Translations under genes and position numbers: made by a program
In this document: positions 10,633-40,163 of the stretch, piece after piece
Layout of the letters: each line of letters opens with the position of its first letter
Numbering within the stretch: the first letter of the stretch is position 1
Notes under the pieces: model-generated
The model's database searches: none
Told to the model about the DNA's origin: nothing
What the model saw: only the letters and a program-made list of their open reading frames with translations
IMG/VR virus record: IMGVR_UViG_3300024268_000012
Strand: one strand, 5' to 3'
Source: a virus
Taxonomy: Duplodnaviria > Heunggongvirae > Uroviricota > Caudoviricetes
Length of the DNA stretch: 43,532 nucleotides

Positions 10633-10641
10633 TAATATAAG
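10613..10641 (+). promoter_or_regulatory. Sigma70-type promoter P6 (TTGACA-N17-TATAAG), inside the 3' end of the aldolase gene
   Basis: TTGACA 10613-10618, 17-nt spacer, TATAAG 10636-10641. Upstream of the DUF262 gene. Confidence 0.5.
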
Positions 10642-10652
10642 AGGTATATAGT

Positions 10653-11657
10653 ATGCAATATGCTGATAGCAAAAATTTATTTGACCAACTATCTGAAGAT
10701 TTTTCCAGAAAGTGTACAACAACTTCTCAGCCTATTAATTATCTAAAATTCTGTAATAACAATGGCCAAATTAATACTGATTTGGATATTCAGCGAGGTT
10801 ACCAATGGGATGAAAAACGTCAGCAAGAGATGTGGAACAGTTTGCTGCTTAATGCTCATATTCCTGAATTCCATGCATTAATCCGCAATGATATTTACGA
10901 CATTATTGATGGTAAACAGCGACTATTAACGATCTTTAAAATCATCAATGATGAAATTCCTCTGAAATACAGCTATGCAGGTCCCGAGCTGCACTGGCTT
11001 TTTACTCAAGGAAAAAATAAAGATGCTCTTGTCCGACAGATTAATTTTTCTTGTTTACCAAAGGAGTTGCAATATCGTATTTATAATACTACGATTTTGA
11101 TTACTACTTACTCTAATCTTGACAGAGATGAACAAATTATGCTCTTTAAAAAAATTAATAATGGTAAAGCATTAAGTGATTTTGCAAAAGGATTGTGCGA
11201 AAATTTCTTTATCCGCAAGGATGGTACTGCTGAAATGCTAAAGCATTCTGTGTTTAAAAATTCAGAATGGAAAGATGAAGAACAAGAGGCAATTGAGAAA
11301 GCGTTAGTTCGCTTTATGATTCTTAAGCATAAAAATATGGTAGTTTCTCTAGAACCCACAAAGATGATTAGTTACTATCCTGAATTTGATCGTGACGTAT
11401 TAAATTTGAGCGTTAAGCAAGTAAATGCTGTCTTAGATCGTATTCCCACTTTGCATAAAATTCTTAAATGCCGCGCTTGGGAATCTTATTTTCCAGCATT
11501 TTTAATAGTAGTTGATCGTCATCCTGAGCTTACAGCAGAACAAATTGACACCATGCTTGTAAAAATTCGTTCTTGTACTGCTGGGCGCGGAGCTGATTTA
11601 AGAGCCAGTATTGTTGCTGAACGCATCGACACTGTAGAATCTTTAATTGACAATTAA
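10653..11657 (+). CDS. DUF262 (ParB/Srx-like nuclease domain, GmrSD N-terminal-type) protein
   Basis: 'DIIDGKQRLLTIF' matches the DUF262 DGQQR-type motif. 334 aa, with own promoter P6 and RBS aagagg. Confidence 0.55.
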   Translation: MQYADSKNLFDQLSEDFSRKCTTTSQPINYLKFCNNNGQINTDLDIQRGYQWDEKRQQEMWNSLLLNAHIPEFHALIRNDIYDIIDGKQRLLTIFKIINDEIPLKYSYAGPELHWLFTQGKNKDALVRQINFSCLPKELQYRIYNTTILITTYSNLDRDEQIMLFKKINNGKALSDFAKGLCENFFIRKDGTAEMLKHSVFKNSEWKDEEQEAIEKALVRFMILKHKNMVVSLEPTKMISYYPEFDRDVLNLSVKQVNAVLDRIPTLHKILKCRAWESYFPAFLIVVDRHPELTAEQIDTMLVKIRSCTAGRGADLRASIVAERIDTVESLIDN

Positions 11658-16440: not shown

Positions 16441-18642
16441 ATGTTAGTAACTAAACGTGATGGACGCCAAGTCCTTTTTAATGTTCAGAAAATTGAAAAC
16501 GCAATCGGCAAGGCATATTGGGACAAAGATTGGTCTCCCGACAAACCTAACCCACCATATGCTGGACATATTGCCGATAAAATTTCTCAGTCTAATCAAG
16601 ACTATACTGTAGAACAGATTCAGGATCTTGTTGAACGAGAACTTATGGCTTGTGATCCTGATGTTGCAAAAGCATATATTCTATATCGTAATAAGCGTAC
16701 TCGTGCAAGAGAACAACAGAGCCGTATTATTAATGCGGTAAAGAGCCGTTTGGAAGCTCGTAATGTGCAGAATTCCAATGCCAATGTTGATGAACGCTCT
16801 TTCTCTGGTCGTGAAAAAGAATCTCAGTCTGATATTCACAAGATTATCGCTCTTGAAGATGGCAGCTATCTAAGTGAAGAAGTTGCAAATGCTCACAAAA
16901 ACATGCTTCTTTATCAGCATGACTTAGAGAAGGCTCCTGTTGGAGAGCATAATTGTTTAAATATTGATTTCAAGAAACTATTCACCGAAGGTTTCGCAAC
17001 CCGCAATGGCGATATTCGTGTTCCTACATCCTATGCCACTGCTTGTCAACAAGTTGCTGTTATTTTCCAATGTCAGTCTCAAGTGCAGTTTGGTGGAGTC
17101 GGTAGCGTTCATATTGACTATGATCTTACTCCTTTTGTAAGAATGAGTTTTGCTAAGCACTTCCTTGATGGTATGGAATGGCTTTGCGACAATGGTGTAG
17201 AATATGATAAGGAAGAGCTTTTAAATCTTCCAATTGATGCGCCACTATATGATGAACAGCCAAAAGTAAAGAAATATGCTATGGCTATGTTGAAAAAGGA
17301 GATGCGTCAGAGTGCAGAAGCTCTCTACCACAACCTCAACTCCCTCGAATCCCGTGCGGGGTCTCAGGTCCCGTTTACCTCTATTAACTTCGGACGAGAC
17401 ACCACTATCGAAGGAAGAATGGTTTCAGAGTCTATGCTCAGAGCTAGTCTCGCAGGAATCGGAAAATTCCACAGAACCGCTATCTTCCCAATTTCAATTT
17501 TCCAGTATAAAACCGGAAACAATGCAAACCCTGCAGACCCAAACTATGACCTTAAGCAATTGGCATTGGAATCCCTCTCTAAACGAATTTATCCCAACTT
17601 CTGTAACTGTGACTGGTCCCAGGCCCACGAAGATCTCTCCGATCCCGACACCTATTTCTCTACAATGGGATGCCGAACCATGCTTGGTTACGATAGACAT
17701 GGACTTGGATATCGTAGAGTCGGACGAGGCAATAACGTTCCAAATACCATTATTCTCCCAAAGCTTGGAATTGAATACGGAATTGCTCTCGGAAAGCGCG
17801 ATAAAGCAGATCTTGAAGGATTCTGGATGGCATTTGAAGACACTCTCAAACTCGCAGAGCAAGGACTCCTTGAAAGATTCGATGTAATGGTCAATCAAGC
17901 TGCAACAGCTGCACCATTTATGTATGAGAATGGAACTATTGCTGATGGTCAAAAGTGTAATATGAGTGTATATCAATCTCTAAAACATAATACGCTTGCG
18001 ATTGGCTATATTGGTATTGCAGAAATGTGTGAAGCATTGTTTGGTGTCAATCATGCTCGCAGCAAGGAAGCTCATGCATTTGCTCTTTCTGTTGTGCAGC
18101 GCATTAATGAGTTTGCAAAAGAAGCAAGTGAACGTAATGATCTTAACTTCTCTTGCTATGCAACTCCTGCAGAAGGACTTTGTTCCACTGCTTTAAAAGC
18201 ACTTCGTCGTCAGTATGGTATTCTACCTCGCATTACTGACAGAGAATTTATTACCAATAGTCATCATGTCCCGGTTTGGGAAGAAATTGGTATTTTTGAA
18301 AAATTGGAGTTGGAAGCTCCATTCTGTAAGTACCCAACAGGAGGATGTATCACATATGTTGAATTGGATGCAACGTTTGTTCAGAACACGAAAGCAATCG
18401 AACAAATCATCGACTACGCGTTCAAAACGCTCGACATCCCATACCTCGCGTTCAACTTCCCAATCGACTCTTGCCTATCTTGCGGCTATCAAGGTGAATT
18501 CAATGACCGCTGCCCTGAATGCGGTTCTACCAACATTCAACAGTTACGAAGAGTAACTGGTTATCTCACTACAGATTACCACAAGTTTAATGAAGGTAAG
18601 CAGGACGAAGTTTTACATAGATTTAAACATTCAAGAAAGTAA
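16441..18642 (+). CDS. nrdD: Anaerobic ribonucleoside-triphosphate reductase (class III RNR)
   Basis: N-terminal ATP-cone 'VTKRDGRQVLFNVQKIENAI', C-terminal Zn-ribbon 'CLSCGY...CPECG', and glycyl-radical motif 'RRVTGYL'. RBS aggagg. Confidence 0.92.
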   Translation: MLVTKRDGRQVLFNVQKIENAIGKAYWDKDWSPDKPNPPYAGHIADKISQSNQDYTVEQIQDLVERELMACDPDVAKAYILYRNKRTRAREQQSRIINAVKSRLEARNVQNSNANVDERSFSGREKESQSDIHKIIALEDGSYLSEEVANAHKNMLLYQHDLEKAPVGEHNCLNIDFKKLFTEGFATRNGDIRVPTSYATACQQVAVIFQCQSQVQFGGVGSVHIDYDLTPFVRMSFAKHFLDGMEWLCDNGVEYDKEELLNLPIDAPLYDEQPKVKKYAMAMLKKEMRQSAEALYHNLNSLESRAGSQVPFTSINFGRDTTIEGRMVSESMLRASLAGIGKFHRTAIFPISIFQYKTGNNANPADPNYDLKQLALESLSKRIYPNFCNCDWSQAHEDLSDPDTYFSTMGCRTMLGYDRHGLGYRRVGRGNNVPNTIILPKLGIEYGIALGKRDKADLEGFWMAFEDTLKLAEQGLLERFDVMVNQAATAAPFMYENGTIADGQKCNMSVYQSLKHNTLAIGYIGIAEMCEALFGVNHARSKEAHAFALSVVQRINEFAKEASERNDLNFSCYATPAEGLCSTALKALRRQYGILPRITDREFITNSHHVPVWEEIGIFEKLELEAPFCKYPTGGCITYVELDATFVQNTKAIEQIIDYAFKTLDIPYLAFNFPIDSCLSCGYQGEFNDRCPECGSTNIQQLRRVTGYLTTDYHKFNEGKQDEVLHRFKHSRK

Positions 18643-18665
18643 GAGGGTGGCGTCCTCTTTTAAAG
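18641..18665 (+). terminator. Possible weak terminator after nrdD
   Basis: Short GC stem AGAGG...CCTCT followed by TTTTAAA. Only ~5 bp. Confidence 0.35.
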
Positions 18666-18675
18666 GAGAAATAAT

Positions 18676-19158
18676 ATGCGATATGCTAACGTAATTTGGA
18701 ATGACATTGTTGCCGGCGACGGTTTATGTGTGTCATTTTATACGCAAGGTTGTCCGCATCGGTGTCCGGGTTGTCATAACCCGGAGACCTGGGACTTTGA
18801 AGGAGGACAAGAATTCCCCGCATCCCTTTTGGACGACCTAATCCGAGGTCTTACCGCACAAGGTATTCAAAGACCCTTGTGCATCCTAGGCGGTGAACCG
18901 CTTTGTCCCGAGAATATTTTTCTTACTACACTATTAATTCGTACAGTGCGGGACAAGCTACCAGATACGCCTATATATGTGTGGACTGGTTATCTTTATG
19001 AAGATCTTCAAAAGATAGGTTCATCCCCACATTTATCATATATCCTTGATAACATTGACTATTTGATTGATGGCCCATATGATGCGACTAAGAGAAATAT
19101 TACTCTTGGTTTGCGTGGTAGCGAGAATCAGAGAGTTTTCAAGTTTGACAGAAAATAA
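18676..19158 (+). CDS. nrdG: Anaerobic RNR activating enzyme (radical SAM)
   Basis: 'GCPHRCPGCHNPETW' CxxxCxxC cluster, ~160 aa, immediately downstream of nrdD. Confidence 0.88.
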   Translation: MRYANVIWNDIVAGDGLCVSFYTQGCPHRCPGCHNPETWDFEGGQEFPASLLDDLIRGLTAQGIQRPLCILGGEPLCPENIFLTTLLIRTVRDKLPDTPIYVWTGYLYEDLQKIGSSPHLSYILDNIDYLIDGPYDATKRNITLGLRGSENQRVFKFDRK

Positions 19159-23702: not shown

Positions 23703-25673
23703 TTAAGCAACCGCCTTTGCAAGAGCTTCCCAAGTCTTGGGACCGCAAATGCCATCGACCTTAATATTTACTTTCTTCTGGAATGCGCGAACTGCATTCA
23801 CAGTTTTAGTGCCATAGTCACCATCAATACCATCTTTATTTTCGCCATAAGTACCAAGATCATATCCAAGTTTCTTCAAATTAGTTTGAAGAATTTTTAC
23901 ATAATCATTTTCAGCGCCTTTACGGATTGTTGGATATTTACTGAAATCAAGAGAAGGAGTGATTACGTTTTCATTATCATCATCAGAATCATCCTTACCT
24001 TGCGCAGCTTGAAGCTTTTTAAGAAGTTCTGCATCAACAATACCATCTGCCAAGATGCCATTATCACGTTCAAATTCTTTAACTGCAGTTGCGGTTTGAG
24101 AACCAAACTGACCATCAGCCTTATCTTCAAGTTCATATCCCAAATCCATTAAGATTTCCTGAAGTTCTTCAACATCAGCGCCAGTCATACCTTCTTTCAA
24201 AGGTAGACGCTCGCCAAGATCATAATCAGTCTTTTCGCCATCAAAAACAAGGAATGTATTCATAACATAACCATACTTGCCGTCAAAATAAGTTTTGCTC
24301 CAAGTTTCTTCACGCTCGTAAACATTAACCTTCTGGCCTTTAGGAATGCGAGCAAGAATGGACGCAGAGGTTGATTTGCCAGCACGCAAATTGAGTCTTC
24401 CAGAGACTGTAGTTACTACCGCAGTAGCAATAGGCTTAGGAGCTTCTACTTCTGGTTCTTCTGCTTTATATTCTCCAGATACGTATTTAATACCCGGAAA
24501 TTCATACCAATCAGTCCAAGGACGTTTATTTAAATCGGTAATGATAATACCCTTAGCAAACCCATAAGCTTCAACAACTTTACCATTACCAATATAATAG
24601 CCAACATGACCATCCTTGCGCACAGCAAGCCCAGGCACTTCTGGGATAGTTGCAATCTTACCATATTTTAAACCCTTGCTCTTGGCATAAGTGAACATAC
24701 TATTTGCAGATTTATCAGGGCAGTTATTTCCATATTTACTCTTGAAGGTCTTATCAGTACCAATAGATTCGATAACACCTTCACCGCCATAAGTCCAATT
24801 GTATCCTTTACCAAGTCCCACACAATCAGCAGAAACCATCTTCTTAGAAATGTGAGATTTATATGTAGCAGTACGATCACTACCATAATGAGAAGGATAT
24901 TGATTAGTTTTACTCTTTAAAGTAGAAGTTGTACATTTATATACACAAGTGCCATACCAATATGGCTGGCCAACCATTGCTTTCAAAAATTCTACAAAAT
25001 GTAAGTTAGTATATTTTTCATATTGAGACATAACATTCCCTCCTTGGGGTTTACCTTCCGTCGTCCCGACGATAGGTTCGCTCGGTTGGGTTACCACTAC
25101 CTCGCCATAATTCTTGCGAATTTCTGTACCTGGATAGTAGAATGCCAAAATTTCATCATATTTAACACCAATAGAAGCTGCATACTTAGCGCCGGTTTGA
25201 CTCATACCAACACCATGTCCATTCTTCTTGCCCTATGAGACGGCATAATCCCACGGGTCTTCTTGGGCGATTAAATATGCTCGCTTTCCGCCCCACTTTT
25301 CCTCACTTGAGTAGGTGCGGCCGCCGTTCATAGCACTGTAATGTGCATTTGTAACGATCTTGTTATTATAATAAAGAACTTCACCCTTCGTCTCTTCAAC
25401 TGCTTGATGTGCTCTTGCATATGAATTAGAGAAGCGTGAAGCGCGGAATGCCTAATCTGTTGAGGATTTGTCGCTAATAGATCCTTTACTCTAATAGCGA
25501 TATAAAGCGAAAGTGCGGGCCGCAACAGCTTGAGCTTTACCTGCTTCAAGAGCAGCATTACCTACTTCTGCGGGAACCACACCTTTTAGATATTCTTCAA
25601 TATCAATTTCAATTTCATCTTTACCATAATAGTCAAGATTTTCGGAGCGAGTAAGTTTTACTTTAATTAGCAT
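23703..25673 (-). CDS. Endolysin: SpoIID/LytB-like domain + Cys/His-containing central domain + two PG_binding_1 repeats; read through 3 TAG
   Basis: ORFs 25491..25673 and 23703..25205 are in the same frame (offset 468 nt). The span between them is open except for TAG at ~25491, ~25452 and ~25232. The N-terminus 'EEYLKGVVPAEVGNAALEAGKAQAVAARTFALY...GHGVGMSQTGAKYAA' is a SpoIID-type domain. The C-terminus has two 'DGxFGxxTxxAVxxFQ' peptidoglycan-binding repeats. RBS aaggagg. Confidence 0.8.
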
Positions 25674-25687
25674 GCTTATTCCTCCTT

Positions 25688-25722
25688 AAAAAAAGAAGAG
25701 GGTTGTTTATTACAACCCTCTT
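25688..25722 (-). terminator. Terminator after the rSAM operon (- strand)
   Basis: Stem GAGGGTTGT/ACAACCCTC with short loop. A-run on + (= T-run on -) at 25688-25695. Lies between gene 25727 and the endolysin start 25673. Confidence 0.6.
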
Positions 25723-25726
25723 TACA

Positions 25727-26041
25727 TTATTCAACAATCTTCTTTAAGCGAAGATTTACTTCACGACGGTCAATTTCTTCATTCATGGTATCAAACAAAG
25801 TATCAATCTTGAAATTATCAACCACATCGTACAAGAGCTCACCGTTCTTATCAAAAACATGTACAGCCTTAATAGTGATACCAACATAAGACTTAATATC
25901 TTCGATGGTGTCTGCAAGACTAGCTGCTGTGTTATCAAGGTAGCAGTTAAAATCATTGCCGAGCTCGCCATTTTCAATATGGCTATAATTTACGCTACGA
26001 ACGTCATAACGTGTTGCAGAATCGTTGAAACTAATAAACAT
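25727..26041 (-). CDS. Hypothetical protein (last gene of the rSAM operon)
   Basis: 104-aa ORF, 16 nt after the 226-aa gene, followed by a - strand terminator hairpin. Confidence 0.5.
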   Translation of the reverse strand: MFISFNDSATRYDVRSVNYSHIENGELGNDFNCYLDNTAASLADTIEDIKSYVGITIKAVHVFDKNGELLYDVVDNFKIDTLFDTMNEEIDRREVNLRLKKIVE

Positions 26042-26057
26042 GTTTTATTCTCTCCTT

Positions 26058-26738
26058 TTAGTTTGCTGGTGGAGGTGGTGGAGGCGGGGGAGGATTACAT
26101 CCACACTCCTCGGGTTTACTTCCATTCCAATCAGAGTTTTTTGGCCCTTCCTCAGGCTTTACTAAACCAAGCGCAGTTAAATAAGTTTGAGAAAGGCGAA
26201 GAGAAGCAGGACGAGACTGACGCCAAGATCTGAGTTCTTTAACAATGCTAGAAGAAGCTTGCATTAATTCAAGATAACCAGCGCCCATTTGTGCCAATGT
26301 ATATGTTGGCGCAAGAGTGTCTTGAATCAAACCAATGCGCTGGGCAATAGTCTGACTACGTTCATCTTCTGGACCATTAGACAATTTAAAGTCTAAATAG
26401 TTACCAAATACAGAGCAATATTGATGAACAATCGCGCACCAGGCACTCATAAAATCATTCCAGGGAAGCTTATCCTCAGTAAGAATAAGAGTTGGAAATT
26501 CATGTTCAATACGAATGAACATGTCTAAAGTGTCCTGAGAAATTGTAAATGCACCATCGTCCTCTCCCGGTTCCCAAGCTGTGATGGCATCAATTTGCTC
26601 CAATACTCTAATCATAATTAATGAAAGTTGCGGCTGAATGGCTGTTAAAATACGACCAATAGGACCCAAAGTATCAATTTCTTTCATCACATGATAGCGG
26701 GCCTCGCCATAAGAAAAATTACGAATTTCAGTTAACAT
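26058..26738 (-). CDS. Hypothetical protein with C-terminal Cys-Gly-Cys + Pro9 tail, coupled to the rSAM enzyme
   Basis: 226 aa. The start overlaps the stop of the upstream rSAM gene by 11 nt. The C-terminus is '...KPEECGCNPPPPPPPPPAN'. Confidence 0.55.
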   Translation of the reverse strand: MLTEIRNFSYGEARYHVMKEIDTLGPIGRILTAIQPQLSLIMIRVLEQIDAITAWEPGEDDGAFTISQDTLDMFIRIEHEFPTLILTEDKLPWNDFMSAWCAIVHQYCSVFGNYLDFKLSNGPEDERSQTIAQRIGLIQDTLAPTYTLAQMGAGYLELMQASSSIVKELRSWRQSRPASLRLSQTYLTALGLVKPEEGPKNSDWNGSKPEECGCNPPPPPPPPPAN

Positions 26739-28116
26739 TTAACTCCGTTACCTCCTCAAGATATTTGAATTGCACTTTCTTTTCTTCAGACAAATCTCTC
26801 CAAACTACACTCCACACCCCATGTTCTTGTAGCCATTTCATTTCAGTATAAATCATAGCATGAGCTACTGCACATACAGTAGGAATTGGAGTAATTAAAT
26901 TACGAGTGCATTCATATTGAGCACCAAGACAGGTGCCAGTACATAATTCATTAATAGGACATTGCGCACAATGCGGCAAAGATGCTTTATGCATAGAATA
27001 TGTTGAAATTAACAATTCCGGATTGATGCATTCAAATTTCAAAATTTCTTTTTCATCAGGCACCAATTTACCATAATACATATCTTCATATCCTGTGCGG
27101 TGACATGGATACATCATTAAGTCACTTACACGTAATGTAAATTGGCTTTGAATACCGCAGGTAAGACCACGTCCACAAGTTGTTAAAGGCTGACTAAACA
27201 TATTAAAACCATTTGCTTTAACTAACCAGCCTGCCATAGCATATGGATCTTTATTAATTTTATTTTCCCATACCCAATCAAGAACAAATCTCATAAATTT
27301 ACACAAAGACTGAACTTGATCATAATTCCATTCTTCATTGCGGACATGCAATAAATACAGGCTCTCCCATGGGATATTGTGTTTTTCCATCATTTCTTGG
27401 AACCACAAGAAATTTTGAGGCCATGCATCAATATTTCTACTATATACCATTGGATGCAAGCCACCATGAATCATATGAGAAAATTGAAATGCACGATCAT
27501 AGTACTCGTCATCTCGCACACCACCACCCAAATCCACATCTAGATCATGTAGATAAGGACGATTGTCTTCCATATATTTTCCATCAAAACTCGCACTAAG
27601 ACCTAGAGTAATACCTATACTTTCGAATTTAGCATGAAGTTCTTTTACTCTTGCAGTTGCTTCTTCAGAACACACAAAAGTAAAATTAGTAGGAATTACA
27701 ATTTCAATTGGACGATATAAAGGATCTAAATCCTTAAAATGTTCATAAATAGTTTCTAATACTTTATATCCAACTTCTTGAGCTAATAATTCACCAGAGA
27801 AAATTTCAATGTTAGCGTTCCAATCATTATGAGTGTACCATTGTAAAATAGTTTTTAGATTTTCAATAGTACGCTCTTCGTTGAAACAATCTTCACTAAA
27901 AATCTTTTTGCGATGACGATGTAAATAACAATATCTACAACCTAAATTGCAACGCGGTGAAATAATTAACTCAATATTTTTCATTTTCTGATCTCTTGGG
28001 GTATCAATAGAGAAATCATCATAAAAATATTTCTCAATTACCCAAGCGCCCAATTCATGATTTTCTTTTTGATATTGAGACAAACCAGTATCATTTACAT
28101 TGCAATGCTCGGCCAT
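26728..28116 (-). CDS. Radical SAM enzyme with C-terminal SPASM-like Cys cluster (peptide/protein-modifying type)
   Basis: 'ISPRCNLGCRYCYL' CxxxCxxC. The C-terminal region has 'CHRTG...C...CAQCPINELCTGTCLGAQYEC', typical of SPASM auxiliary Fe-S clusters. 462 aa. Confidence 0.8.
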   Translation of the reverse strand: MAEHCNVNDTGLSQYQKENHELGAWVIEKYFYDDFSIDTPRDQKMKNIELIISPRCNLGCRYCYLHRHRKKIFSEDCFNEERTIENLKTILQWYTHNDWNANIEIFSGELLAQEVGYKVLETIYEHFKDLDPLYRPIEIVIPTNFTFVCSEEATARVKELHAKFESIGITLGLSASFDGKYMEDNRPYLHDLDVDLGGGVRDDEYYDRAFQFSHMIHGGLHPMVYSRNIDAWPQNFLWFQEMMEKHNIPWESLYLLHVRNEEWNYDQVQSLCKFMRFVLDWVWENKINKDPYAMAGWLVKANGFNMFSQPLTTCGRGLTCGIQSQFTLRVSDLMMYPCHRTGYEDMYYGKLVPDEKEILKFECINPELLISTYSMHKASLPHCAQCPINELCTGTCLGAQYECTRNLITPIPTVCAVAHAMIYTEMKWLQEHGVWSVVWRDLSEEKKVQFKYLEEVTELNVN

Positions 28117-29507
28117 GGTTTCATCGCTCCTCTATTTACTAAAATTTTATAATATCGCATCATTTCTTCCACAGCACCATTGCCTAATAAACGCAAATAA
28201 CTGCAAGGTACAATAGAAGGATTAGTTGTATAGTCTTCCTCAACGCCAATATGACAATATAATCCACAAGTCATCATAAACATTAATAAACGATCATCTT
28301 CATTATATGCATATTTACTGTTGATTTGTCCAGCGCAAGCCATTGTTACAGCCATTTGATCAAAGAAATATTTTCTAGACATAATATCGGCATGGAAAGA
28401 CATAGAACCATAAGTGCGTTTCATCCAAACCTTATCATTAGTATTCATATTACATCCACTTTGCATTGCATGCTTAGTCTTCATTTTTTCATCAAGAGCT
28501 GCATTACGACAGAGACGATTACAAGTATAAATATTTCCTTCATGATCAATAGTAATATTATTCTTACTAGCGGAACAAGAATAAGAATTTTCTTGTGTCG
28601 CAATAGGATTGCCAGCTTCTGCTTGGAAAAATACTTCAGGTCCATTAAATAATTGACCAAAAAGAGGGCGACCATCATAGCAAGGTTTATCTTGTACATT
28701 TACTCTCGGTAAAAAGCTAAGCCATTTTGCAAATGTCTCACCATCTTCTTGAGTATAATAGCCTGGGTCAACCAAAGTTGGGCAACCCGCAATTTGTAAA
28801 CTAATATTTTTTTTACCTTCAATTAATTTATCGCATTCAACTTGTAAATCATTGAAGAATTTATAATACCAGTTAAATGAATCAATTCCTCTCTCATTCA
28901 TAATTTTCATATAACTAACATCTAATGTAGCTTTAGTATTAATTACAAGAGAGAAATATTCCATATCTGCAGGACAACGAGTTAAAATTTCTTTCATAGT
29001 TTTAATTGTGCTCGCAGTCGCTCCAGGATGACGAGAATCATCATTAAATTCAGGTGGACCATCTAAAGACATTTGAAGATTAAAAGTGATTTTACGTTTG
29101 TGGTGAGTTGCATAAACCATCATTGGCAAGAAAAAATCTTCATAAATGCGATCGCCCAAAAGAGCATTAGTAGAAAACATTACATCTTTAGCATTTGGAT
29201 AATAGTCAAATAATGCTTCAAATGTTGCTCGCCAGTACTGACTATTAATTGTAGGTTCTGCGCCCCACAAACTTACATTTTCAATAGCATCACGGATGCC
29301 TGCGGTGACACGTTTAACATTTTCTACAAAAGTTCCATCTTCAAGTGCTTGACGAATATCTCTATTATAAGAAGCCATGCACTTTTTTTCTTTTTCAATA
29401 TAACAATATTTACATGCCATATTGCAATCTGATGACCAGTGTAGGCTGACGCTGGCTATATTAGCCAGCGCTTCGCCTAAATAATCAAGAGAAGGAATTT
29501 GTTTCAT
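28095..29507 (-). CDS. Radical SAM enzyme with C-terminal SPASM-like Cys cluster (second, paralogous maturase)
   Basis: 'SSDCNMACKYCYI' CxxxCxxC. Later 'CSASKNNITIDHEGNIYTCNRLC...GCNMN...CAGQ' and 'CGLYC' cysteines. 470 aa. Overlaps the downstream rSAM gene by 22 nt. RBS gaggag. Confidence 0.8.
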   Translation of the reverse strand: MKQIPSLDYLGEALANIASVSLHWSSDCNMACKYCYIEKEKKCMASYNRDIRQALEDGTFVENVKRVTAGIRDAIENVSLWGAEPTINSQYWRATFEALFDYYPNAKDVMFSTNALLGDRIYEDFFLPMMVYATHHKRKITFNLQMSLDGPPEFNDDSRHPGATASTIKTMKEILTRCPADMEYFSLVINTKATLDVSYMKIMNERGIDSFNWYYKFFNDLQVECDKLIEGKKNISLQIAGCPTLVDPGYYTQEDGETFAKWLSFLPRVNVQDKPCYDGRPLFGQLFNGPEVFFQAEAGNPIATQENSYSCSASKNNITIDHEGNIYTCNRLCRNAALDEKMKTKHAMQSGCNMNTNDKVWMKRTYGSMSFHADIMSRKYFFDQMAVTMACAGQINSKYAYNEDDRLLMFMMTCGLYCHIGVEEDYTTNPSIVPCSYLRLLGNGAVEEMMRYYKILVNRGAMKPWPSIAM

Positions 29508-29528
29508 ATCTCCGTTTTCTCCTCTCGC

Positions 29529-31022
29529 TTAATTCGAGTAATTTCTTGAATAATAATTACTAGTATAATTACCAGTTTTATTGCCAGAATTATATGTAGA
29601 ATAGTTACCAGACTTATAAGTGGTATGATAACCTGTCTTATAGCTAGTATAATCCGCGGTATCATAACTATGATTGGTGCCATTATGAGAACTCTTGGCG
29701 CCACTGTCATTAGAAGAATAATAACTTCCATGATGGGAGGTATAATCCGCGCTATCATAGCTATAATTACTCGTTTTATAAGTTGTATAATGCGTTTTTG
29801 CGCTTGCATTATAACCACCATGATTACTTGTGTAATCTGCACTATCGTGAGAATATTTTCCACCATAGTGAGTAGTATAATTTGCGCCTTTTGCAGATGC
29901 ATTATAAGTAGCAAAATTGCTGCCATTATATCCGGCATAATGAGTGTACTTTCCACTGTTATATCCAGTATAATCTCCACCATTAGCAGATGCGTAATAT
30001 GAGCCTTTGTGCGTAGCATAGTTTGTGCTATGATAGGCATAATTACCACCATTGTGGACGGAATAATGTGCATTTGCTGTTGTATAATATCCGCCAAAAT
30101 TATTAGTATTATAAGAACTTAAGTGACCAACTTTTTCACTCTAATAATGTGTACTATTATGACCAGATTTATGTGTAATATAATATGTTTCATAATGAGC
30201 AGTATTTTGCCCAGTATAATGATTAACATAATAAGAAGTTTTTACTGTGGCATTATAATTAGTATAGTTTGCAGTATCATAAGTTACATAATGAGTAGTA
30301 TAATATGTGGCATTATTTGAAGTATTGTAGCCTGCATAATGGCTATATTTTTGCGCACCATTATGTGTATCAAATTCAGTACTAAATTGATTACCAAAAT
30401 GATCTGGACAATGTGAAGTATTATAAATTTGATAGTGCGTAGTATAATAATTAGTATAATACGCTTTATGGTTACTACTATAATCCGCAGACTTATGAAG
30501 ACGATTGCCCGTATAATAAGTTCCATGGAACTAATAATGAGCACTCTTATACGTTACATAATTTGTTGTATTATGTTCATAATTTCCACCAAAATAAGAA
30601 TAATAATGAGTACCATTATGAGTAGTATAATAATCTGCATAATGATTCGTATAATAACTTGCATTATGACCATATCGATGACTGTTAAAATACTCAGTAT
30701 AATAAGAATTATGCCAAGCTGTCCAGTTATTAATATCATATCCGGTATAATAATTTACTAAATGCCCTGTATAATAAGCATCATTATATCCAGATTTATG
30801 ACCTGATTTATAAGATGAAAGATGCCCGTTATAATATGTACCTTTTTCACCATTGTGATGGGTAGCATAATGTCCACTATAATGTGAACTTAAATGTCCG
30901 CTCAAGTGCCCTGAATAATATGCAGGGCAATGAGCAGCTTCTTGGGCCTAAATTGCAGTTAATGGATTATTTAAGTCAGAAGGAATAATTTTATTTCCTT
31001 TGACTGCTGTTGAAGTCGCCAT
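29529..31022 (-). CDS. Giant Tyr/His/Ser/Thr/Asn/Gly repeat protein B (putative rSAM substrate), read through ~3 TAG
   Basis: ATG at 31022 with RBS ggaggaa. The Y/H-rich frame (e.g. ORF 30531..30905 'GHLSSHYSGHYATHHNGEKGTYYNGHLSSYKSGH...') continues on both sides across TAG codons to TAA at ~29529, 20 nt before the rSAM start. Length is 1494 nt, divisible by 3. ORFs in other frames here are low-complexity artefacts. Confidence 0.65.
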
Positions 31023-31044
31023 TGTGGATTATTCCTCCTTTTTA

Positions 31045-32661
31045 TTAAGTTACAGTAACATTATGCGATTTATTACCAGCACGATAAGCGGTATAATTAG
31101 AAGTATTATAAGTGCCATAATTAGCAGTATAATAACCTGTCTTATAATTACTATGGTTACCACTATTATAACCACTCCAGTGAGAATTACGAGCAGCATT
31201 TTGACCACTATTATAAGAGCTATCATGTCCACTCTTATTACCTGAATAATGACCACTATTATATCCGCTCCAGTGAGAACGCTGTGCAGTTAAATTAGAG
31301 TTATTATATGTTGCATAGTTACCGCTTAAATGACTTGTATAATAACCACTATTATAACCACTCCAATGATTATTATAAGTGGAATAATTTGAACCATTAT
31401 GACTGGTGTAATGACCACTTAAATGTCCTGTATAATTACCATTATTTTCAGAGCTTCTATGAGAAGTATATACAGTCTTATTATGATTAGTGTAATGCGT
31501 AGCATAATAACCACTTAAATGCCCTGTATAATCACCTGCATTGTGAGATACATAATGAGCTCTATAACCAGTTTGATATCCCATATTATGACTAGAATAT
31601 CGTCCTGTATAATGAGTAGTATAATTATTACTATTATAAGTTGAATAATGATTATTTTTTCCTGTGTATTGAGCAGTATAATTAGAGCTTAAATAGCCAG
31701 AATTGTATCCAGTATAATTAGCTGCATCACGACTAGTGTATTGAGTACCATTATGCCCTGAATAATGCGTTTTTTGTCCTGCTTTATTTGTACTATTATA
31801 GGTCGAATAATGAGTTGTATAATTAGTAGTTTTTGCTCCACTATTATAGGTGGAATAATGAGAGCTTCTGTGAGCATAATCATATGTTTCAAAATGACTA
31901 TCATAAGCAACAGCACGGTGAGATTTTGCTCCAATATGATAAGTGGTATATTGAGTACCGTAATAGCCAGTATAATGACTATTTTGATTAGTATAATGAC
32001 TATAATAATAATTATTATAATTAGTACTCTTATAAGAACTATCATGTGAACTATAATAACCACTATAATATTCTGCATTATGACTTTCAAATTCTGCCGC
32101 TCTATGATAAAAATGACTTTTTTCAGTAGTATTGCGAGTTGTATAATGAGTTGCATAATAAGTAGCATTTCTACCGCTGTAATGTGGAGCAAAATACGTA
32201 TTATAATGAGCTTCACGATGAGCAGAATAATAAATACCACATGCTGCCCAGTTATCAAAATATTGCCAATTACTATGATGAGATCCATAGAAATCGGAAT
32301 TATGAGTTGTATAATAGCTACTATAATGACTACTCTTATAACTACTTTCTCTGCCGCTATAATATGTTGCATTATATGAAGTATATTGTGTTGCATAAAC
32401 CGTAGATTTATGCGCATTTAAATATCCTGCATTATAAGCGGCACAACCGTAATTGATAGAACCAGCTTGGCTATCAATAACATCCGATAATTCTTTAGGC
32501 GAATTATAATTTAATTTAGAATTATAAACTGCAATAGGATCATGTTGCCAATTATATTTGGCTAAACCCAATTTATCAGTTCTAAAATTATCAATTCGAT
32601 TTCGAACTAATAAATAATCAGAATATGCAGTTTTCTAACCCGTTGAAACTGGTACCGCCAT
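31045..32661 (-). CDS. Giant Tyr/His/Ser/Thr/Asn/Gly repeat protein A (putative rSAM substrate), one TAG at codon 9
   Basis: ATG at 32661 with RBS ggaggg. 'MAVPVSTG[TAG]KTAYSDYLLVRNRIDNFRTDK' continues into the ORF-track 508-aa ORF 31045..32571. About 538 aa, >85% S/T/N/G/Y/H. Repeats such as 'HWSGYNSGYYTSHLSGNYATYNNSN'. Confidence 0.7.
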
Positions 32662-32690
32662 TCGTTCGCCCTCCTTTATCTCTATAAAAT

Positions 32691-32720
32691 ATTATAACAA
32701 AAATTTTTATCTATGTCAAA
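32691..32720 (-). promoter_or_regulatory. Consensus sigma70-type promoter (TTGACA-N17-TGTTATAAT) for the Y/H-repeat + rSAM operon
   Basis: On the - strand: TTGACA (revcomp of 32715-32720), 17-nt spacer, TTTTGTTATAAT with TATAAT = revcomp of 32691-32696. Immediately 3' of a terminator hairpin and ~30 nt upstream of ATG 32661. Confidence 0.65.
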
Positions 32721-32753
32721 AAAAAATATGGCCGCAATTAAGCGGCCATATTT
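32715..32753 (-). terminator. Terminator after the tail-fibre gene (- strand), immediately upstream of the rSAM-operon promoter
   Basis: 9-bp stem TATGGCCGC/GCGGCCATA with AATTA loop (32727-32750). The + strand A9 run (32718-32726) gives a T-run on the - strand. Confidence 0.65.
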
Positions 32754-32941
32754 ACTATAAAATTTTAACATAAAGTTAAAATATATATATTCACATTTAC
32801 CGCAATCACCATGGGTTGCGTGATGTGGGATTTATCGGACAACATTCAAAATTTAATGTCTATGAAGTAATAGATAAATACCACCAAATCTGTTAAACAG
32901 CAATTTTTCAATCAATTGGTGTGTATTTTATATAAAAATTA

Positions 32942-35900
32942 TTAACGAACTTTAATCCAGATTCGTCCATTTACTTCAACATTACCAGTGCCCCAAGTCT
33001 CATAATTAGGGATTTCAGAAACAGTGCCAACAATACGATCAGGATACATCATAATTTCTTCTCTTGTCATTAAACTAACAGTGCCATTCGGACCAGTACA
33101 TACTGCTGCACCAAGAGGATAAGAATTTCTATCTTCATAAGTATATGCTAAAGCACGTCCAGCAACCGCCAAAGGAGTTTTACATTCGTTTGTTTCACCC
33201 ATAGCAGAACCAAAAGTATCAGATACAATACTTGCCCCAGCCTACAGTCTCTCTGTTGAAATTTTCATTTCTCCAGAAATATCTTCTATTACCACTCGGC
33301 CTGGCTCAACTGTTTCTGCTTTTCTAAATTCAGCATAGTCATTCCAAACAGCATTATATACTTTAGTACCATAAATAGCTCCAGCAACACCAAGACCACC
33401 AGATACTTTTAATGCACCAGAAGTAGTATTTGTTGCTGCGGTAGTATTTGTAATAGATACTACACCAGTAAATGTTTTAGTACCAGCAAAAGATTGTGTG
33501 CCGGTAGTTACAACGCCAGCTTGATTTGTTGCAGCATTAGGAACATATAATGTAGCAACGCCAGTGCCAGTAGCAATACTTAATCCACCAGTATAAGTCG
33601 GAGTATGATAATAGTTAGTGTTAGTATTTGGATTTGCTGGCATAGTTACCTTTAAGTCTACTCCAGCGACAGTACCAATAGTACTTGTTTGTCCCCATGC
33701 TAAAGTAGGGCCGCTATTAGTTACCGCTTTCCAAGAAGGAGCGGCAGAAGAGCCACCACTTGTTAAAATCTAACCCGCAGTTCCTGTACCCAAAGAAGCA
33801 AGAGCAGAAGAACTTGATGCATATACTAATCCATATGCTGTCCAAGATGTTTTTCCAGTACCGCCGTGACCGACCCCTAAAGTGCCAGTAATACCAGGAC
33901 GTGGGCTCGCCGCAAATACGTTAGCCGCGGTAGTAGAGCCAAGATTAACCAACATGGATGGATTTGAAGTAATTCCAGTACCACCATAAGCTACAGCAAG
34001 AGCATTGGTTAATTGTAAAGTAGGAATGGAGGTTGTACCATAAAATGTTACATCTTTATTATCCATTCCAATTCGCATTGCATTATTAAAAGTTGCTTCT
34101 GTGCTGGTGTTAGTTCCAGAACCAGAGGTTTGAAGCACAAAATAATTTGCATTAGATGATCCAGTTCCTAAAACACCCGCACGCCATTCTGCCCCATAAT
34201 TGGTAGTTTGATGTTCCCAAATAATAAACTTATCAGTATCACCAGTTAAAATACGAATATCGTCATTAAAGGTTTTTGCACCAGCAAATGTTTGCGCGCC
34301 AGTGGTGACAACGCCTCCTTGCGTAGCATTTGCTGCATCAAGCGTAACAGTTCTATTTTTTCCTGCGACAGTAATAGATAAAGTTTCACCATTAGCTCCT
34401 GCAGTAGAACTAAAGTTGCTAAATAGTGAGCTCGCATCACAAGATGTTATTATACCACCGTTTAAATAAACTGGTACACTTGCACTACCAGCTGTTCCAG
34501 TTAATGCTTTAATTTCACCACTAGACATATAGACAGGCTGAGTAGTTGAACCAAGAGTGGAGGATGATGCTGTTAATGTACCAGCATTTAAGAAGATTGG
34601 TTTTGCGCTTGCACCAACACTGGCGCCAGAAGCCTTAATTATACCATCTTCCATATAAATTGGTTTAGTCGCGCTACCAATATCTGAGGTAGACGCTGTG
34701 ATTGTACCACTATTTAAAAATACTGGATTATTAGATGCACCAACAGTAGAGGACGATGCTGTTAATGTACCAGCATTTAGATACATAGGAACAATACCAG
34801 ATCCAACCGTAGAAGTGGATGCTGTTGCTGCACCATCTGCTGCGATATATACAGGCTTTACTCCAGAACCAATTGCAGTATCATTGGTATGAACTACAAA
34901 CTGATATCCCGTAGTAGATGCTGCGACATTAGGTAAATTAAATACGTTACTATTCGCCGTACCAGAATCAATGCGAACGTCATAATCAGCAGTAGAAGCA
35001 TTGGTCTTATGAAAGTCTAAATAACGACCAATTTCACTTACACCAGATCCATTAACAGTAACAAAACCATTGTTAAACCATGCGCCAGATTTTGGTAAAG
35101 TAATAGTAATAGTTTCATCCGCGCCCTTATTGGTATGACCATAAGTATCAACAGTAATCTGCGGAATGGCAAAAGAGGTTGCGGCTCCAGTTAATGTTGT
35201 AACAGTATTGCCGCTAGTATAACCACTACTTGGTCCCTTCTTAGCATGCTTTGCGTCATAGGTGACTCCGTTAGTTCCAGCAGTACCAGTTAAAACAACA
35301 ATATCATCATCTGTTGCTGTTGCACTAATATTAATCTATACATTCTTTTTAGTGACAGTAATTTTACCATTGGTATCTTGGCTAATAGTATCAATAAAAG
35401 CGGATGCATTACCTGATGTACCTGGGCTAGACACAGCAGTTTGAAGAACCTTGTAGCTACCTTCATCACCAAGCAATTCCCAGCGACTATTGTAACTATT
35501 CCAAACATATTCTTTTGTGCCATAAATAACCACATCGCCAGCTAAACGATCATCGGGCCAAGTATATCCAGAAATTTTAGGATCAGTATTACTTTGATTT
35601 GTGATAGCTACGGTAGCAACACCGATATAATGCATTGCATTTGTTAAACCAAGATTAATACGTAGCTGCTCGGCAGTAATTGAACCTCCAAGAGAAACAC
35701 TTGTGCCTGCAATATTAACTGAAGAATTAACTAATTTATTATTAGCAATTGATCCCGCTAACATAGCATTGGTAACTTTACCAGTGCCAATAGTAGTAGT
35801 GATGTTCCAATCGGCACTTCCATTAGAAGAGCCTGTGCCACCTACGTCTCCACTTAAAGTAACTGCTCGTGATGCATTAAGTTTAGAAGCAGAAGTGGCA

Positions 35901-37276
35901 TTACCACTGAATGTAGTTGCATATACAGTTCCTTGCGCATAAATATTCTTCCATCTAGCAGTATCTGTACCAAGACTATATGTATTATGTGCAGAAGGAT
36001 TAATATGTTGAGCAGTGGTAGTTCCACCAATTGTAGCACCACTCGCACCAATTTCTGCCTTTTTAGCAACAATAGTTTCACCAAATGTTGCACCACCAGT
36101 AACGGTTAATGCTTGTGTAGCATGATTACTACCAATAACTGCTGTTCCAGTACTTGTTAACTTTGCAGAAGCAGTAATATATGGAGCAGAAATAGTGCCT
36201 TCAGAACTAATATTTCCAACCGCTGCAATAGTAGAAGATGCACTTATAGCACCAGTAAAAGAAGATGTTTCAGTTACAGCAAGAGTGCTTTGTAATGTGG
36301 TTGCGCCAGTTGCTTTTAAAGTTCCATTAGCAACAATATTTTTTAAATTTGCAACGCCAGCTCCACTAACATAATATGTTGTACCACCAAAATATAAAGA
36401 AGTGCCTGACGCTACAGTTGTTTTATTATTTAAAGCTACTGTATTAGTAAAAGTAGTAGCTCCATTGAAAGCCGCAGTTCCAGAGGCGGTCAAATTAGAA
36501 GCAATAGCTACAGGAACCGCTGCGATGTTTAATGTATTTGTTGTGTCAGAAAGAGTTTGATAAATAATAAATTGAGAGGCTTTATTATCAAAGATACCTC
36601 TTGTTACAGAAGTTGCTTTCATTTGCCATCCATGAGAACTGTTTTTCACATTAACATAAGCATCTCCACTAGAAGTGTTGATTGTTAATGGACCAGTCAT
36701 CGTATCGCCATCAATATTCACATATAAATCATCTAAAGCAGCTTCACAGTTTGTTAAAAAATTATTAACTGTTAAAATCGGACTATTATTGTGATATAAA
36801 TTGCTAGCATCACTTGTATATAAATACAACCCTCCAACTTGAGGATTTGTAGATTCTGCCAAACTTAAAATTGCCTTACCAGCGCTATCTTTAATAGCTT
36901 GCCCACTACTAAGAGTGACACCAGAAGACAGAACAGGGGAGGACTTAAAAGTCTTCACTCCATAAATTTCTTGAGCAACTAAGCTCAAAACACCAGAATG
37001 GTCTGATGAAGCATATGGCAATTCTCTAATTGCCTCTTGACCACCAACTTCTAATTTAATACAGCTGGCTTTTTCATCGTCGCCATCTGCTTTCACAAAA
37101 GTGATTACAGGCGCACCTGTTAATAAATCTGCGTACTAAGCATTTAACGGCACTCTCTCTGTGGCAGTATCAATATAAAACTTACCATTATCAGGAGTAA
37201 AATAAGCATAACCTTCAGTTATTTTTTGATTACCTAAGCTTGCCGCAGGACCTTTAAAAATCTTAAAAAGAGCCAA
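32942..37276 (-). CDS. Tail fibre / receptor-binding protein (~1445 aa), read through 4 TAG codons
   Basis: ORF-track pieces 35336..37096, 33770..34786, 33242..33643 and 32942..33202 are all in one frame, joined by TAG at 35336, ~33690 and 33242. A further TAG at ~37137 extends the N-terminus to a TTG/RBS (ggggaggg) at ~37276. It ends at TAA 32942. It contains Gly/Thr/Ser/Ala-rich ~17-aa tandem repeats (YLNAGTLTASSSTVGAS-type). Confidence 0.7.
33770..34786 (-). repeat. Intragenic tandem ~17-aa Gly/Ser/Thr/Ala-rich repeats within the tail-fibre gene
   Basis: Six consecutive units of the type '(Y/F)(L/M)N(A/S)G(T/I)(L/I)TAS(S/T)S(T/D)(V/L/I)G(A/S)' are visible in the translated ORF (MYLNAGTLTASSSTVGAS / NNPVFLNSGTITASTSDIGS / KPIYMEDGIIKASGASVGAS / KPIFLNAGTLTASSSTLGST ...). 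Confidence 0.6.
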
Positions 37277-39695: not shown

Positions 39696-40163
39696 TTATT
39701 CCCCTTTCTCAATTTTAACCAATTGTTGGAATAATTCAACAATTTCAGTGTAATAGCTTTGAACTTGAGCACCAAGAGCCTGAGTTAAATAAATCTAACG
39801 AGTAATTTCAAAATTAGTCGCTTTTAAATCAATAGTAAACTCAGAAGACAACCGATAATCTGATGTCCCTGGAGCCAAAGTCATAAGCTGAAGAGTCGTT
39901 TTTCCAGAAATTAAACGGACCGGTTGCCGCAAAGACACTCTGTAAATGTTGTAAGCTGTATCTGCGGCTGGCTGCTTAAATTCCAACTCAACTACATCCC
40001 GCATCCCCTTATCATCTGTCATAATTAAAAAGACTTGATCAAGAATTCTCGGATTCTTATTTTTAGATACATGAAATTCAATATCAACCAAATCAGTTCC
40101 TGAAGCAAAACCTCTTGCAGGATTTAATTTGTCAAGTCTATCAAAATACATAATTGCGGCCAT
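39696..40163 (-). CDS. Hypothetical structural-module protein, read through 1 TAG
   Basis: ATG at ~40163 with RBS ggaggataac. ORF-track 39795..40217 ends in TAG at 39795. The frame continues 33 codons to TAA at ~39696, 5 nt before the next gene's RBS/start. Confidence 0.5.

Follow-up and report, generated by a model that had tools for sequence, protein, structure and literature searches.

Giant tetrapeptide-repeat proteins as probable substrates of a radical SAM enzyme pair in a TAG-recoded phage

INTRODUCTION

Why would a tailed phage encode, side by side, two proteins of about 500 amino acids (a.a.) that consist almost entirely of Tyr- and His-rich tetrapeptides? The question is raised by a 43,532-nucleotide stretch of Caudoviricetes DNA (IMG/VR record IMGVR_UViG_3300024268_000012; this whole stretch is called the window below), for which an initial annotation, made from the sequence alone, had placed two paralogous repeat proteins at 29529..32661. 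Exactly this interval is filled by two adjacent minus-strand genes, gene A (31045..32661, 538 a.a.) and gene B (29529..31022, 497 a.a.), both of which start with ATG.

We propose that A and B are probably giant protein substrates of a pair of radical S-adenosylmethionine (rSAM) enzymes encoded beside them, comparable to the precursors of peptides that are ribosomally synthesized and modified post-translationally (RiPPs); the chemistry of the modification and its biological role are inferred. The proposal draws on the strict synteny of the two maturases with such proteins, a conserved leader, a conserved residue at the leader/core junction, a core that is hypervariable, and a large degree of agreement between enzyme clade and core architecture; sequence evidence of this kind is the usual bioinformatic standard for the assignment of a RiPP precursor. 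The phage to which A and B belong as late genes is large and reads TAG as Gln, and its host, as judged (like the habitat) from lysin domains, titles of metagenome-assembled genomes (MAGs) and sample names, probably belongs to the Clostridia. The initial annotation had been silent on the dependence of both genes on TAG-to-Gln reading, on the six-gene operon to which they belong, and on their short relatives that resemble RiPP precursors.

RESULTS

Leader-plus-core proteins beside a conserved pair of rSAM genes

Both proteins have the non-repetitive N-terminus that had been noticed before, and in both it ends at a Cys: residues 1-72 of A (32446..32661, minus strand) are followed by Cys73 in '...INYGC', and residues 1-31 of B (30930..31022, minus strand) by Cys32 in 'HCPAYY'. 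In each case the remaining ∼466 a.a. form a core of tetrapeptide units. Cys had been described as missing with one exception, but each protein has two, and an aromatic residue follows at the third position after each of the four (C-x-x-aromatic: GCAAY and ACGIYY in A; HCPAYY and HCPDHF in B). Of the two HCP motifs in B, one is internal (HCPDHF, residues 204-209, 30396..30413), and the segment 'SHCPDHFGNQF…' around it matches the start-of-core motif of relatives, e.g. L001_B (HCPSHFTSHLGGQF). Because of this resemblance, B of the window looks like two cores fused behind a single leader.

Next to B lie the genes of the two enzymes, rSAM1 (28095..29507, minus strand; 470 a.a., cluster motif CNMACKYC with C28/C32/C35) and rSAM2 (26728..28116, minus strand; 462 a.a., cluster motif CNLGCRYC with C56/C60/C63). 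They are followed by genes for an accessory protein X (26058..26738, minus strand; 226 a.a., predicted from its sequence to be helical) and for protein Y (25727..26041, minus strand; 104 a.a.), the last of the operon. A single rSAM1 query found no related loci, but an alignment-based scan succeeded. Homologues of rSAM1 form 73 clusters and those of rSAM2 404, nearly all of them from metagenome assemblies (contigs of up to 275 kb), and none bears a specific functional name. rSAM1 and rSAM2 are adjacent in all ∼30 full phage or prophage loci that we examined with their flanks, and in nearly all of them the pair is accompanied by one or two leader-plus-core proteins. The link between repeat proteins and rSAM genes, for which the initial annotation had suggested a search, is therefore strictly conserved across ∼30 loci. 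X follows rSAM2 in most loci, and a gene of similar size is found at the position of Y in relatives.

The proteins beside the enzyme pair differ greatly in size. Pairs of precursors measure 364 and 286 a.a. (L007), 269 and 244 a.a. (L001), 188 and 99 a.a. (L008), 137 and 108 a.a. (L004), 144 and 66 a.a. (L005) or 133 and 99 a.a. (L009), and a more distant clade has single precursors of 246-344 a.a. The N-termini, first proposed to be leader or recognition segments, can indeed be aligned between about 25 relatives (the leader alignments cover 11-14 loci), in contrast to the hypervariable cores. A-type leaders are 62-79 a.a. long; a Trp and the terminal Cys are invariant in them, and E/D-L is common. 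The B-type leaders, of 25-40 a.a., look like one half of an A-type leader, and most of them have 'HCP' at the end. Core lengths range from 32 to 544 a.a. across loci, i.e. 17-fold. A and B stand at the large end of a family; its short members, of 66-144 a.a., resemble ordinary RiPP precursors.

Core architecture changes with the enzymes. A period of four residues with two small ones (xx-small-small) is retained where rSAM2 shares ∼35% identity or more with its counterpart in the window, positions 1 and 2 being variable (e.g. YDSG/VDSS, (H-x-S-S)n), and in loci beyond that distance the cores are richer in Cys and repeat every 5, 9 or 10 residues. The clade of the enzyme thus largely tracks the architecture of its putative substrate (there are exceptions, e.g. 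L022).

The cassette follows tail-fibre genes in the window and in L001, L007, L008 and L009, follows a tape-measure protein gene in L029 and L017, and lies between tail-fibre-like and holin/GH25 genes in a prophage of a Neglectibacter/Clostridia MAG. This context bears on the idea that the cassette makes a RiPP natural product (a bacteriocin, signal or adhesive) that is secreted or released at lysis, the cores being cut into many small modified peptides. Such a product would agree with the leader/core architecture, the RiPP-type maturases and the relatives of 66-144 a.a.; the repeated units could be multiple cores, and lysis would make an exporter unnecessary. However, the cassette is consistently found within tail modules and not at variable cargo sites, neither a protease nor an immunity gene nor a transporter was found in the operon or conserved nearby, and no regular cleavage-site motifs were seen between the repeat units of A and B. 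We consider it quite unlikely that A and B are precursors of this kind.

The relative L006 (run SRR094926) retains only a truncated, TAG-rich remnant of rSAM1 between tail-fibre and lysin genes (10001-11050), and the genes for A, B, X and rSAM2 are all missing; decay or loss of the cassette can therefore happen. A Saccharibacteria MAG (L032:4213-11131) encodes the rSAM pair and X, with a third rSAM and a tetratricopeptide repeat (TPR) protein upstream; its precursor is rich in C, D, S and Y and has a hydrophobic N-terminal segment, and the locus may be a cellular, exported version of the system. In L033 (77-2194), a 705-a.a. protein encoded directly upstream of the rSAM pair combines a non-repetitive, enzyme-like N-terminal domain with an S/T/N/G/Y/C-rich tail, which may be a second modifying enzyme fused to a core-like region.

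TAG is read as Gln, and both genes are under purifying selection

Under the standard code, the open reading frames (ORFs) as first described do not exist: A has an in-frame TAG at codon 9 (32635..32637) and B has three, at codons 25, 164 and 294 (30948..30950, 30531..30533 and 30141..30143). B would be in four pieces and A would lose its ATG, leaving a 508-a.a. ORF started by TTG. Each is a single gene because the phage reads TAG as Gln. Out of 31 plausible genes of the window none is terminated by TAG, and 12 in-frame TAGs are found, all within five minus-strand late genes: A, B, and those for a 1444-a.a. tail fibre, a 656-a.a. lysin and a 173-a.a. protein (the sites outside A and B are 37136-37138, 35336-35338, 33770-33772, 33242-33244, 25491-25493, 25452-25454, 25233-25235 and 39795-39797). 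The 17 plus-strand replication genes of the window have no TAG at all. When the window is compared with three close relatives (including L110 and L111), Gln codons (CAA or CAG) stand opposite TAG at five out of seven variable sites. To judge from these codons, the whole window is TAG-recoded (TAG = Gln, genetic code 15). The tail-fibre gene (1444 a.a., 32942..37276) likewise appears as four separate ORFs under the standard code. No tRNA gene, and thus no suppressor tRNA-CTA, was found in the 43.5-kb window; related contigs do encode a suppressor tRNA with the anticodon CTA (L004:5189-5281, L027:5020-5108 and L028:5280-5368), which belongs to an array of 6-24 tRNA genes and lies 3-5 kb upstream of rSAM1, and ARAGORN labels it 'Pyl' (amber suppressor).

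TAG-to-Gln recoding is known from gut phages (bioRxiv 10.1101/2021.08.26.457843; PMC9523058; phAss-1, PMC10607447). The window has in common with genetic code 15 gut phages that no gene stops at TAG and that TAG is found in frame only among late genes for structural and lysis proteins. Its DNA polymerase shares 38% identity with that of phAss-1 and 38-39% with those of Enterococcus and SPbeta-like phages. Unlike the window, phAss-1 has no rSAM pair (tblastn with rSAM1 and rSAM2 gave no match). Recoding accounts for how A and B are read, not for their function.

Selection on the two genes was measured against the relative L110, whose rSAM1 is 91% identical to that of the window. B and its L110 counterpart are colinear and gap-free, with 79/54/188 differences at the three codon positions. 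The ratio of non-synonymous to synonymous substitution rates (dN/dS) of B is 0.11 in the claimed frame, versus 1.62 and 1.26 in the other two sense frames; for A it is 0.096, and for the cores alone 0.09-0.10. Frames on the opposite strand of the A/B region give 0.29-2.2. The long Ile-rich ORFs in alternative frames, which the initial annotation had regarded as artefacts, are indeed artefacts, with dN/dS ∼0.10 in the claimed frame and above 1.2 in the other sense frames. Moreover, orthologues of 539 and 497 a.a. are found in three assemblies from different Sequence Read Archive (SRA) sequencing runs (a fourth assembly has orthologues of 441 and 400 a.a.), and the DNA repeats of the region are only degenerate (periods of 12, 24 and 93 nucleotides (nt), 60-85% identity).

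A region that the standard code splits so badly, with B in four parts and A without its ATG start, might be taken for something other than a functional gene pair: a decaying pseudogene, an assembly artefact or coding in another frame. Window-wide recoding and the alignment of TAG with Gln in relatives exclude pseudogenes; three independent assemblies with the same gene sizes, together with the degenerate DNA repeats, exclude a mis-assembled simple repeat; and dN/dS of ∼0.1 solely in the claimed frame excludes the Ile-rich frame as the true one. Strong ribosome-binding sites precede the ATGs of A and B (AAAGGAGGG and AAGGAGG), and the cassette has a strong promoter. We give a non-functional region a vanishingly small probability, as it is already refuted by the analyses of recoding, selection and assemblies: A and B are genuine genes under purifying selection as protein.

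Composition and tetrapeptide periodicity of the cores

The cores of A and B contain 18-20% Tyr, 12-15% Ser, 12-13% Thr, 12% Asn, 9-10% His and 8-10% Gly. S, T, N and G together make up 45-48%, and I, L, V and M only 3.2-3.4%, so the near lack of aliphatic residues in the first description holds, as does its estimate of more than 25% His and Tyr (27.5% in A and 29.8% in B). The periodicity analysis that had been recommended there gave autocorrelations of small residues that rise from 0.07-0.13 at lag 2 to 1.8-1.9 at lags 4 and 8, and a big-big-small-small register accounts for 90-92% of residues, versus 79 ± 1.7% in shuffled sequences; the periodicity is thus far above chance. A collagen-like period of 3 was rejected on the autocorrelation.

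The repeat unit had been given as 'tetra- to hepta-peptide', but it is a tetrapeptide with occasional three-residue units: [H/Y/N]-[Y/N/K]-[S/T/A]-[G/S/T/A], where position 3 can also be Gly. Each protein has ∼117 units and 10-11 phase slips, most of which are three-residue units directly preceding His. Position 1 is H, Y or N in 75-82% of units, His being only one of the three common residues there. For the aromatic motif of the triceptide type, [HYFW]-x-[ST], we counted 77 instances in A and 73 in B (∼37 expected, z ∼9); HxS is present in 20 copies in A (z 6.2) and in 13 copies in B (z 3.4). Metal binding by His and cross-linking by Tyr had been predicted in the initial annotation; HxxxH is enriched in B only. 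T4 gp37 reportedly has iron-binding HxH motifs; no HxH is found in A or B, and motifs of this type were rejected for them. Pairwise core alignments showed no clear multiple-of-4 rule for gap lengths, low-complexity alignments being unreliable.

Could such chains, much as the initial annotation had it, be unmodified low-complexity structural or scaffold proteins (Tyr/His 'sticker' polymers, metal binders or a fuzzy coat of the tail), with the rSAM enzymes acting elsewhere? Sticker polymers that self-associate include FUS, suckerin and mussel-type materials, and squid suckerins, Nereis jaw protein and mussel byssal proteins are Tyr/His-rich low-complexity repeats with small-residue spacers that form tough, metal-binding or cross-linked materials. 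These animal Gly/Tyr/His materials differ from A and B, however: they are Gly-dominated and eukaryotic, are cross-linked by oxidation or metals and not by rSAM enzymes, and have no homology to the phage proteins. The regular spacing of aromatics by small polar residues in A and B, the selection on their cores as protein and the adjoining tail genes all speak for a structural role. So does the failure of AlphaFold2 to fold A (single-sequence model, pLDDT 33, no secondary structure); with the intrinsic disorder that had been predicted this model, made without an alignment, is consistent, though as weak evidence, and disorder would not hold for a cross-linked chain. What an unmodified structural protein leaves unexplained is the co-operonic and strictly syntenic rSAM pair with X in ∼30 loci, the conserved N-termini and junction Cys against 17-fold variation in core length, and the RiPP-precursor look of the 66-144-a.a. 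relatives. We therefore regard this alternative as unlikely and favour the reading of A and B as enzyme substrates.

The operon and its enzymes

The order of the operon is terminator / promoter / A-B-rSAM1-rSAM2-X-Y / terminator. A strong intrinsic-terminator-like hairpin with a 12-bp stem and a T-run (32724..32753, minus strand) ends the upstream tail-fibre gene, and the cassette promoter (32691..32719, minus strand) consists of TTGACA, 17 nt and TG-TATAAT, matching 12 out of 12 consensus positions with an extended -10 element; it is the only 12/12 match to a sigma-70 promoter within 11 kb. rSAM1 overlaps rSAM2 by 22 nt at its 3' end, and rSAM2 overlaps X by 11 nt. Another terminator-like hairpin (25696..25722, minus strand) closes the cassette directly before the lysin gene. 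The cassette is flanked by the tail fibre upstream and by SpoIID/SH3/peptidoglycan-binding lysin and holin-like genes downstream.

The CxxxCxxC motif of rSAM enzymes is invariant in 22 homologues of rSAM1 and 28 of rSAM2, and the Pfam family Radical_SAM is matched as well. rSAM1 has just three further invariant Cys (C311, C329 and C418), and is therefore twitch-like or has a partial SPASM domain. rSAM2 has seven (C320, C338, C383, C386, C392, C396 and C415, including CxxCx5CxxxC in the 28 homologues), which make up a full canonical SPASM domain. Neither enzyme has an N-terminal extension of the size of a RiPP recognition element (RRE), the cluster motifs being at residues 28 and 56. The two are related to each other in the N-terminal half-barrel only (hhalign probability of 97.5% over 127 columns), and a BLASTP match between them is confined to the cluster motif. 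Their best NCBIfam matches are RiPP maturases (PapB with 48-49 bits, YhhB, HxsB, SCIFF and DynA) and anSME, and a profile of rSAM2 matches CteB (3.5e-11), TigE (2.8e-10) and ChlB (3.9e-5) in the PDB. These matches indicate peptide- or protein-modifying enzymes of the SPASM/twitch class, in which rSAM1 and rSAM2 would represent undescribed subfamilies. PADLOC gave only weak viperin-like matches for the cassette, and membership in the viperin and anSME families was rejected (weak PADLOC scores and NCBIfam scores below cut-off, respectively).

X has a C-terminal motif, (L/I)-S-x-x-(Y/F)-L-x-x-L, that is kept in relatives; in the window alone it ends in a run of ten prolines (…CGCNPPPPPPPPPPAN, 26058..26105), which no relative has. 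X and Y have no match in Pfam, NCBIfam, PHROG or PDB, and for A, B, the A-type leader profile, X and Y no match was accepted in Pfam, NCBIfam, PHROGs or PADLOC. A PDB sequence search with the A-type leader profile and X also gave no accepted match.

The tail fibre upstream of the cassette ends in a C-terminal module '…AVWNDYAE(Y/F)R…GRIWIKV(K/R)' (32942..33400) that is kept in L001, L006-L010 and L019 and persists there though the rest of the fibre differs. At a distance from the cassette, the interval 16441..19158 holds a gene for an anaerobic ribonucleotide reductase of the NrdD type (16441..18642, PHROG 487) and, after it, a 160-a.a. ORF that may encode its rSAM activase. If so, this would be a third rSAM of the window, unrelated to the cassette, and would fit an anaerobic host. 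rSAM proteins of similar structure (BFVD) are found in 'Myoviridae sp.' contigs from the gut (ctkfK18 and ctYA416 have two each) and also in Campylobacter phages, which carry 11-12 orphan rSAM genes (PMC2853527).

Comparison with known systems

In architecture, the nearest system to the cassette that we recognized is HXS (HxsA/B/C/D), in which two rSAM enzymes and a small protein mature a His-x-Ser repeat protein, with N-terminal processing and modification of SHRSS (PMC13128918). In both systems, the genes of two dissimilar rSAM enzymes are neighbours, the accessory protein is small, and the known or putative substrate is of protein size, with HxS units and an N-terminal part for processing or recognition. 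The enzymes of the window, however, are not HxsB (TIGR03978, 25.6 bits versus a cut-off of 370) or HxsC, and X is not HxsD. HxsA has five repeats and a peptidoglycan-binding domain and is exported to a Gram-negative periplasm, while A and B have ∼117 units each and neither this domain nor a signal peptide. HXS is bacterial, and the system of the window is encoded by a phage of Gram-positive type, among late tail genes. Membership in HXS was rejected by the scores of the curated NCBIfam models.

The cassette might nevertheless be a phage counterpart of HXS defence, with matured repeat proteins in the envelope that block the entry of competing phage DNA (superinfection exclusion). The parts list is the same (two rSAM enzymes, a small accessory protein and a His-x-Ser repeat protein, as in PMC13128918), HxS is over-represented in A and B, rSAM2 matches HxsB weakly, and the L022_B core, (H-[DKR]-S-S)n, resembles the modified SHRSS motif of HxsA. 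Against this stand the score of rSAM2, far below the HxsB cut-off, the lack of NCBIfam matches to HxsC, HxsD or HxsA, and PADLOC matches that are only viperin-like. With almost no hydrophobic residues and no Pfam match, A and B give no sign of a signal peptide or of a peptidoglycan-binding domain; lysin domains and MAG hosts predict a Gram-positive host, and HXS is found to 99.7% in Pseudomonadota (PMC13128918); and the TAG codons mark A and B as late, the wrong timing for exclusion. An exclusion function of this kind seems to us very unlikely.

In motif logic, the nearest systems to A and B would be the triceptides (aromatic-x-x cyclophanes), for which the rSAM enzymes ChlB, YhhB, HaaB, HtkB, FxsB and GrrM/OscB form three-residue cyclophanes (PMC11499958). 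The NCBIfam models of cyclophane maturases (YhhB, AmcB, FxsB and GrrM/OscB) give only 15-30 bits on the rSAM enzymes of the window, versus cut-offs of 310-445, and triceptide membership was rejected on these scores. Triceptide systems also use one enzyme, in contrast to two in the window, which would act on ∼500-a.a. proteins with ∼75 motifs each. Known triceptide precursors are short peptides with a handful of motifs.

Sactipeptide and ranthipeptide systems are similar in other respects. PapB is the top sequence-level match of both rSAM enzymes and CteB the top PDB profile match of rSAM2; a conserved Cys marks the leader/core junction, and the cores of short relatives have 4-8% Cys. The auxiliary cluster of CteB reportedly leaves an open site for a substrate Cys, and the three auxiliary-cluster Cys of rSAM1 would leave such a site as well. 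They differ in that each ∼466-residue core of the window has only two Cys, which would allow thioethers at one or two sites at most. Membership was rejected: PapB scores 48-49 bits versus 340 and the SCIFF maturase 16-25 versus 425, and the core is not Cys-rich. TigB/TigE, which makes poly-cyclopropylglycine at TIGSVS repeats (PMC9062424, PDB 8vpo), is a single-enzyme system that targets Val of a small peptide; A and B are almost without Val.

Searches of larger collections were of limited use for the repeat proteins. Neither blastn with 26000..33000 nor tblastn with rSAM1 matched any of 50,697 phage records, and rSAM2 gave only a weak partial match there to an rSAM of a Pseudomonas jumbo phage. 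Protein A had no match in a word-indexed library of 5.8 billion clusters or among 1.84 billion representatives, a null result that is uninformative: a local phmmer search at the same database size detects relatives of A at 2e-248 to 1e-18, and an exact look-up in a collection of 15 billion proteins showed that the long repeat proteins are absent from it (e.g. the 568-a.a. L003_B, which has no TAG), whereas the 66-a.a. and 144-a.a. relatives of L005 are present. Because the long proteins are missing from the libraries, the null searches carry no weight and are not a sign of rarity. No description of phage cassettes with rSAM enzymes and repeat proteins was found in the literature searched. The A and B genes are invisible to gene callers that use the standard code, which, together with the absence of the long proteins from the protein collection, may be one reason why the family seems to have gone unnoticed.

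DISCUSSION

How might the enzyme pair act on A and B? X and/or the rSAM enzymes would bind the leader, and the junction Cys would position the chain at the auxiliary Fe-S cluster, after which the enzymes would install many side-chain modifications along the repeats. The likeliest of these would be a C-C link that joins the ring at position 1 (aromatic or imidazole) to the Ser/Thr beta-carbon at position 3, i.e. a three-residue cyclophane, and such ring-to-C-beta cross-links at [H/Y]-x-[S/T] are our best guess by analogy with triceptides. One or two Cys-based links at the C-x-x-aromatic sites may be added; taken with the auxiliary site of rSAM1, which has three Cys, the conserved Cys hints at a step that is Cys-anchored or makes a thioether. 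A floppy polar chain would in this way become a rigid, protease-resistant polymer. The TAG codons, a feature of late genes in the window, and the usual neighbourhood of tail genes make it most likely that the product is made late and is either tail-associated or released at lysis, and they argue against an early exclusion function.

Several points weigh against the substrate reading or against the chemistry that we attach to it. That A and B are modified is itself deduced from gene context and sequence conservation, and the position of the cassette, with tail-fibre genes on one side and lysis genes on the other, is also one where unrelated cargo is classically carried. To our knowledge, substrates of ∼500 a.a. 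with >100 candidate sites are unprecedented for this class of enzymes; A and B (538 and 497 a.a.) are longer than a short precursor in the usual sense (<∼150 a.a.), a length within which the 66-144-a.a. relatives fall. Pfam, NCBIfam and PHROG scans of the operon revealed neither an RRE domain nor a leader peptidase or exporter. All NCBIfam matches of the two enzymes are below the curated cut-offs (170-855 bits), by 7- to 20-fold, so the chemistry is not transferable from any characterized enzyme, and fold searches score ChlB, anSME, TigE and CteB nearly equally, so that cyclophane chemistry is not favoured over thioether, formylglycine or cyclopropyl formation. Position 1 is often Val, Asp or Glu in the period-4 relatives L016-L018, so a ring-to-C-beta link is not possible at all of their units. 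Finally, the short relatives are Cys-rich (4-8%) versus two Cys per core in the window; the ancestral chemistry may therefore be thioether formation, and the giant repeats may be largely unmodified.

If A and B are substrates, the size of rSAM-modified products would grow ∼10-fold, to ∼500 residues with ∼75 candidate motifs in ∼117 units, and RiPP-type rSAM chemistry would be placed within the late, tail-linked gene set of a virus. The family would also offer a natural series for studying how enzymes handle repeats, as the same leader and enzymes serve cores of 32-544 residues, and a concrete, testable function for many of the orphan phage rSAM genes reported since 2010. A bolder idea, which we put forward tentatively and consider rather doubtful, is that phages use RiPP-type radical chemistry to build a material: a chain of ∼500 residues stitched by the rSAM pair at dozens to ∼100 units into a rigid, protease-proof and possibly metal-binding polymer, located in the tail or adsorption apparatus or coating the virion. 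If true, it would be the first post-translationally cross-linked 'poly-cyclophane' protein, and an architectural relative, on the phage side, of HXS defence.

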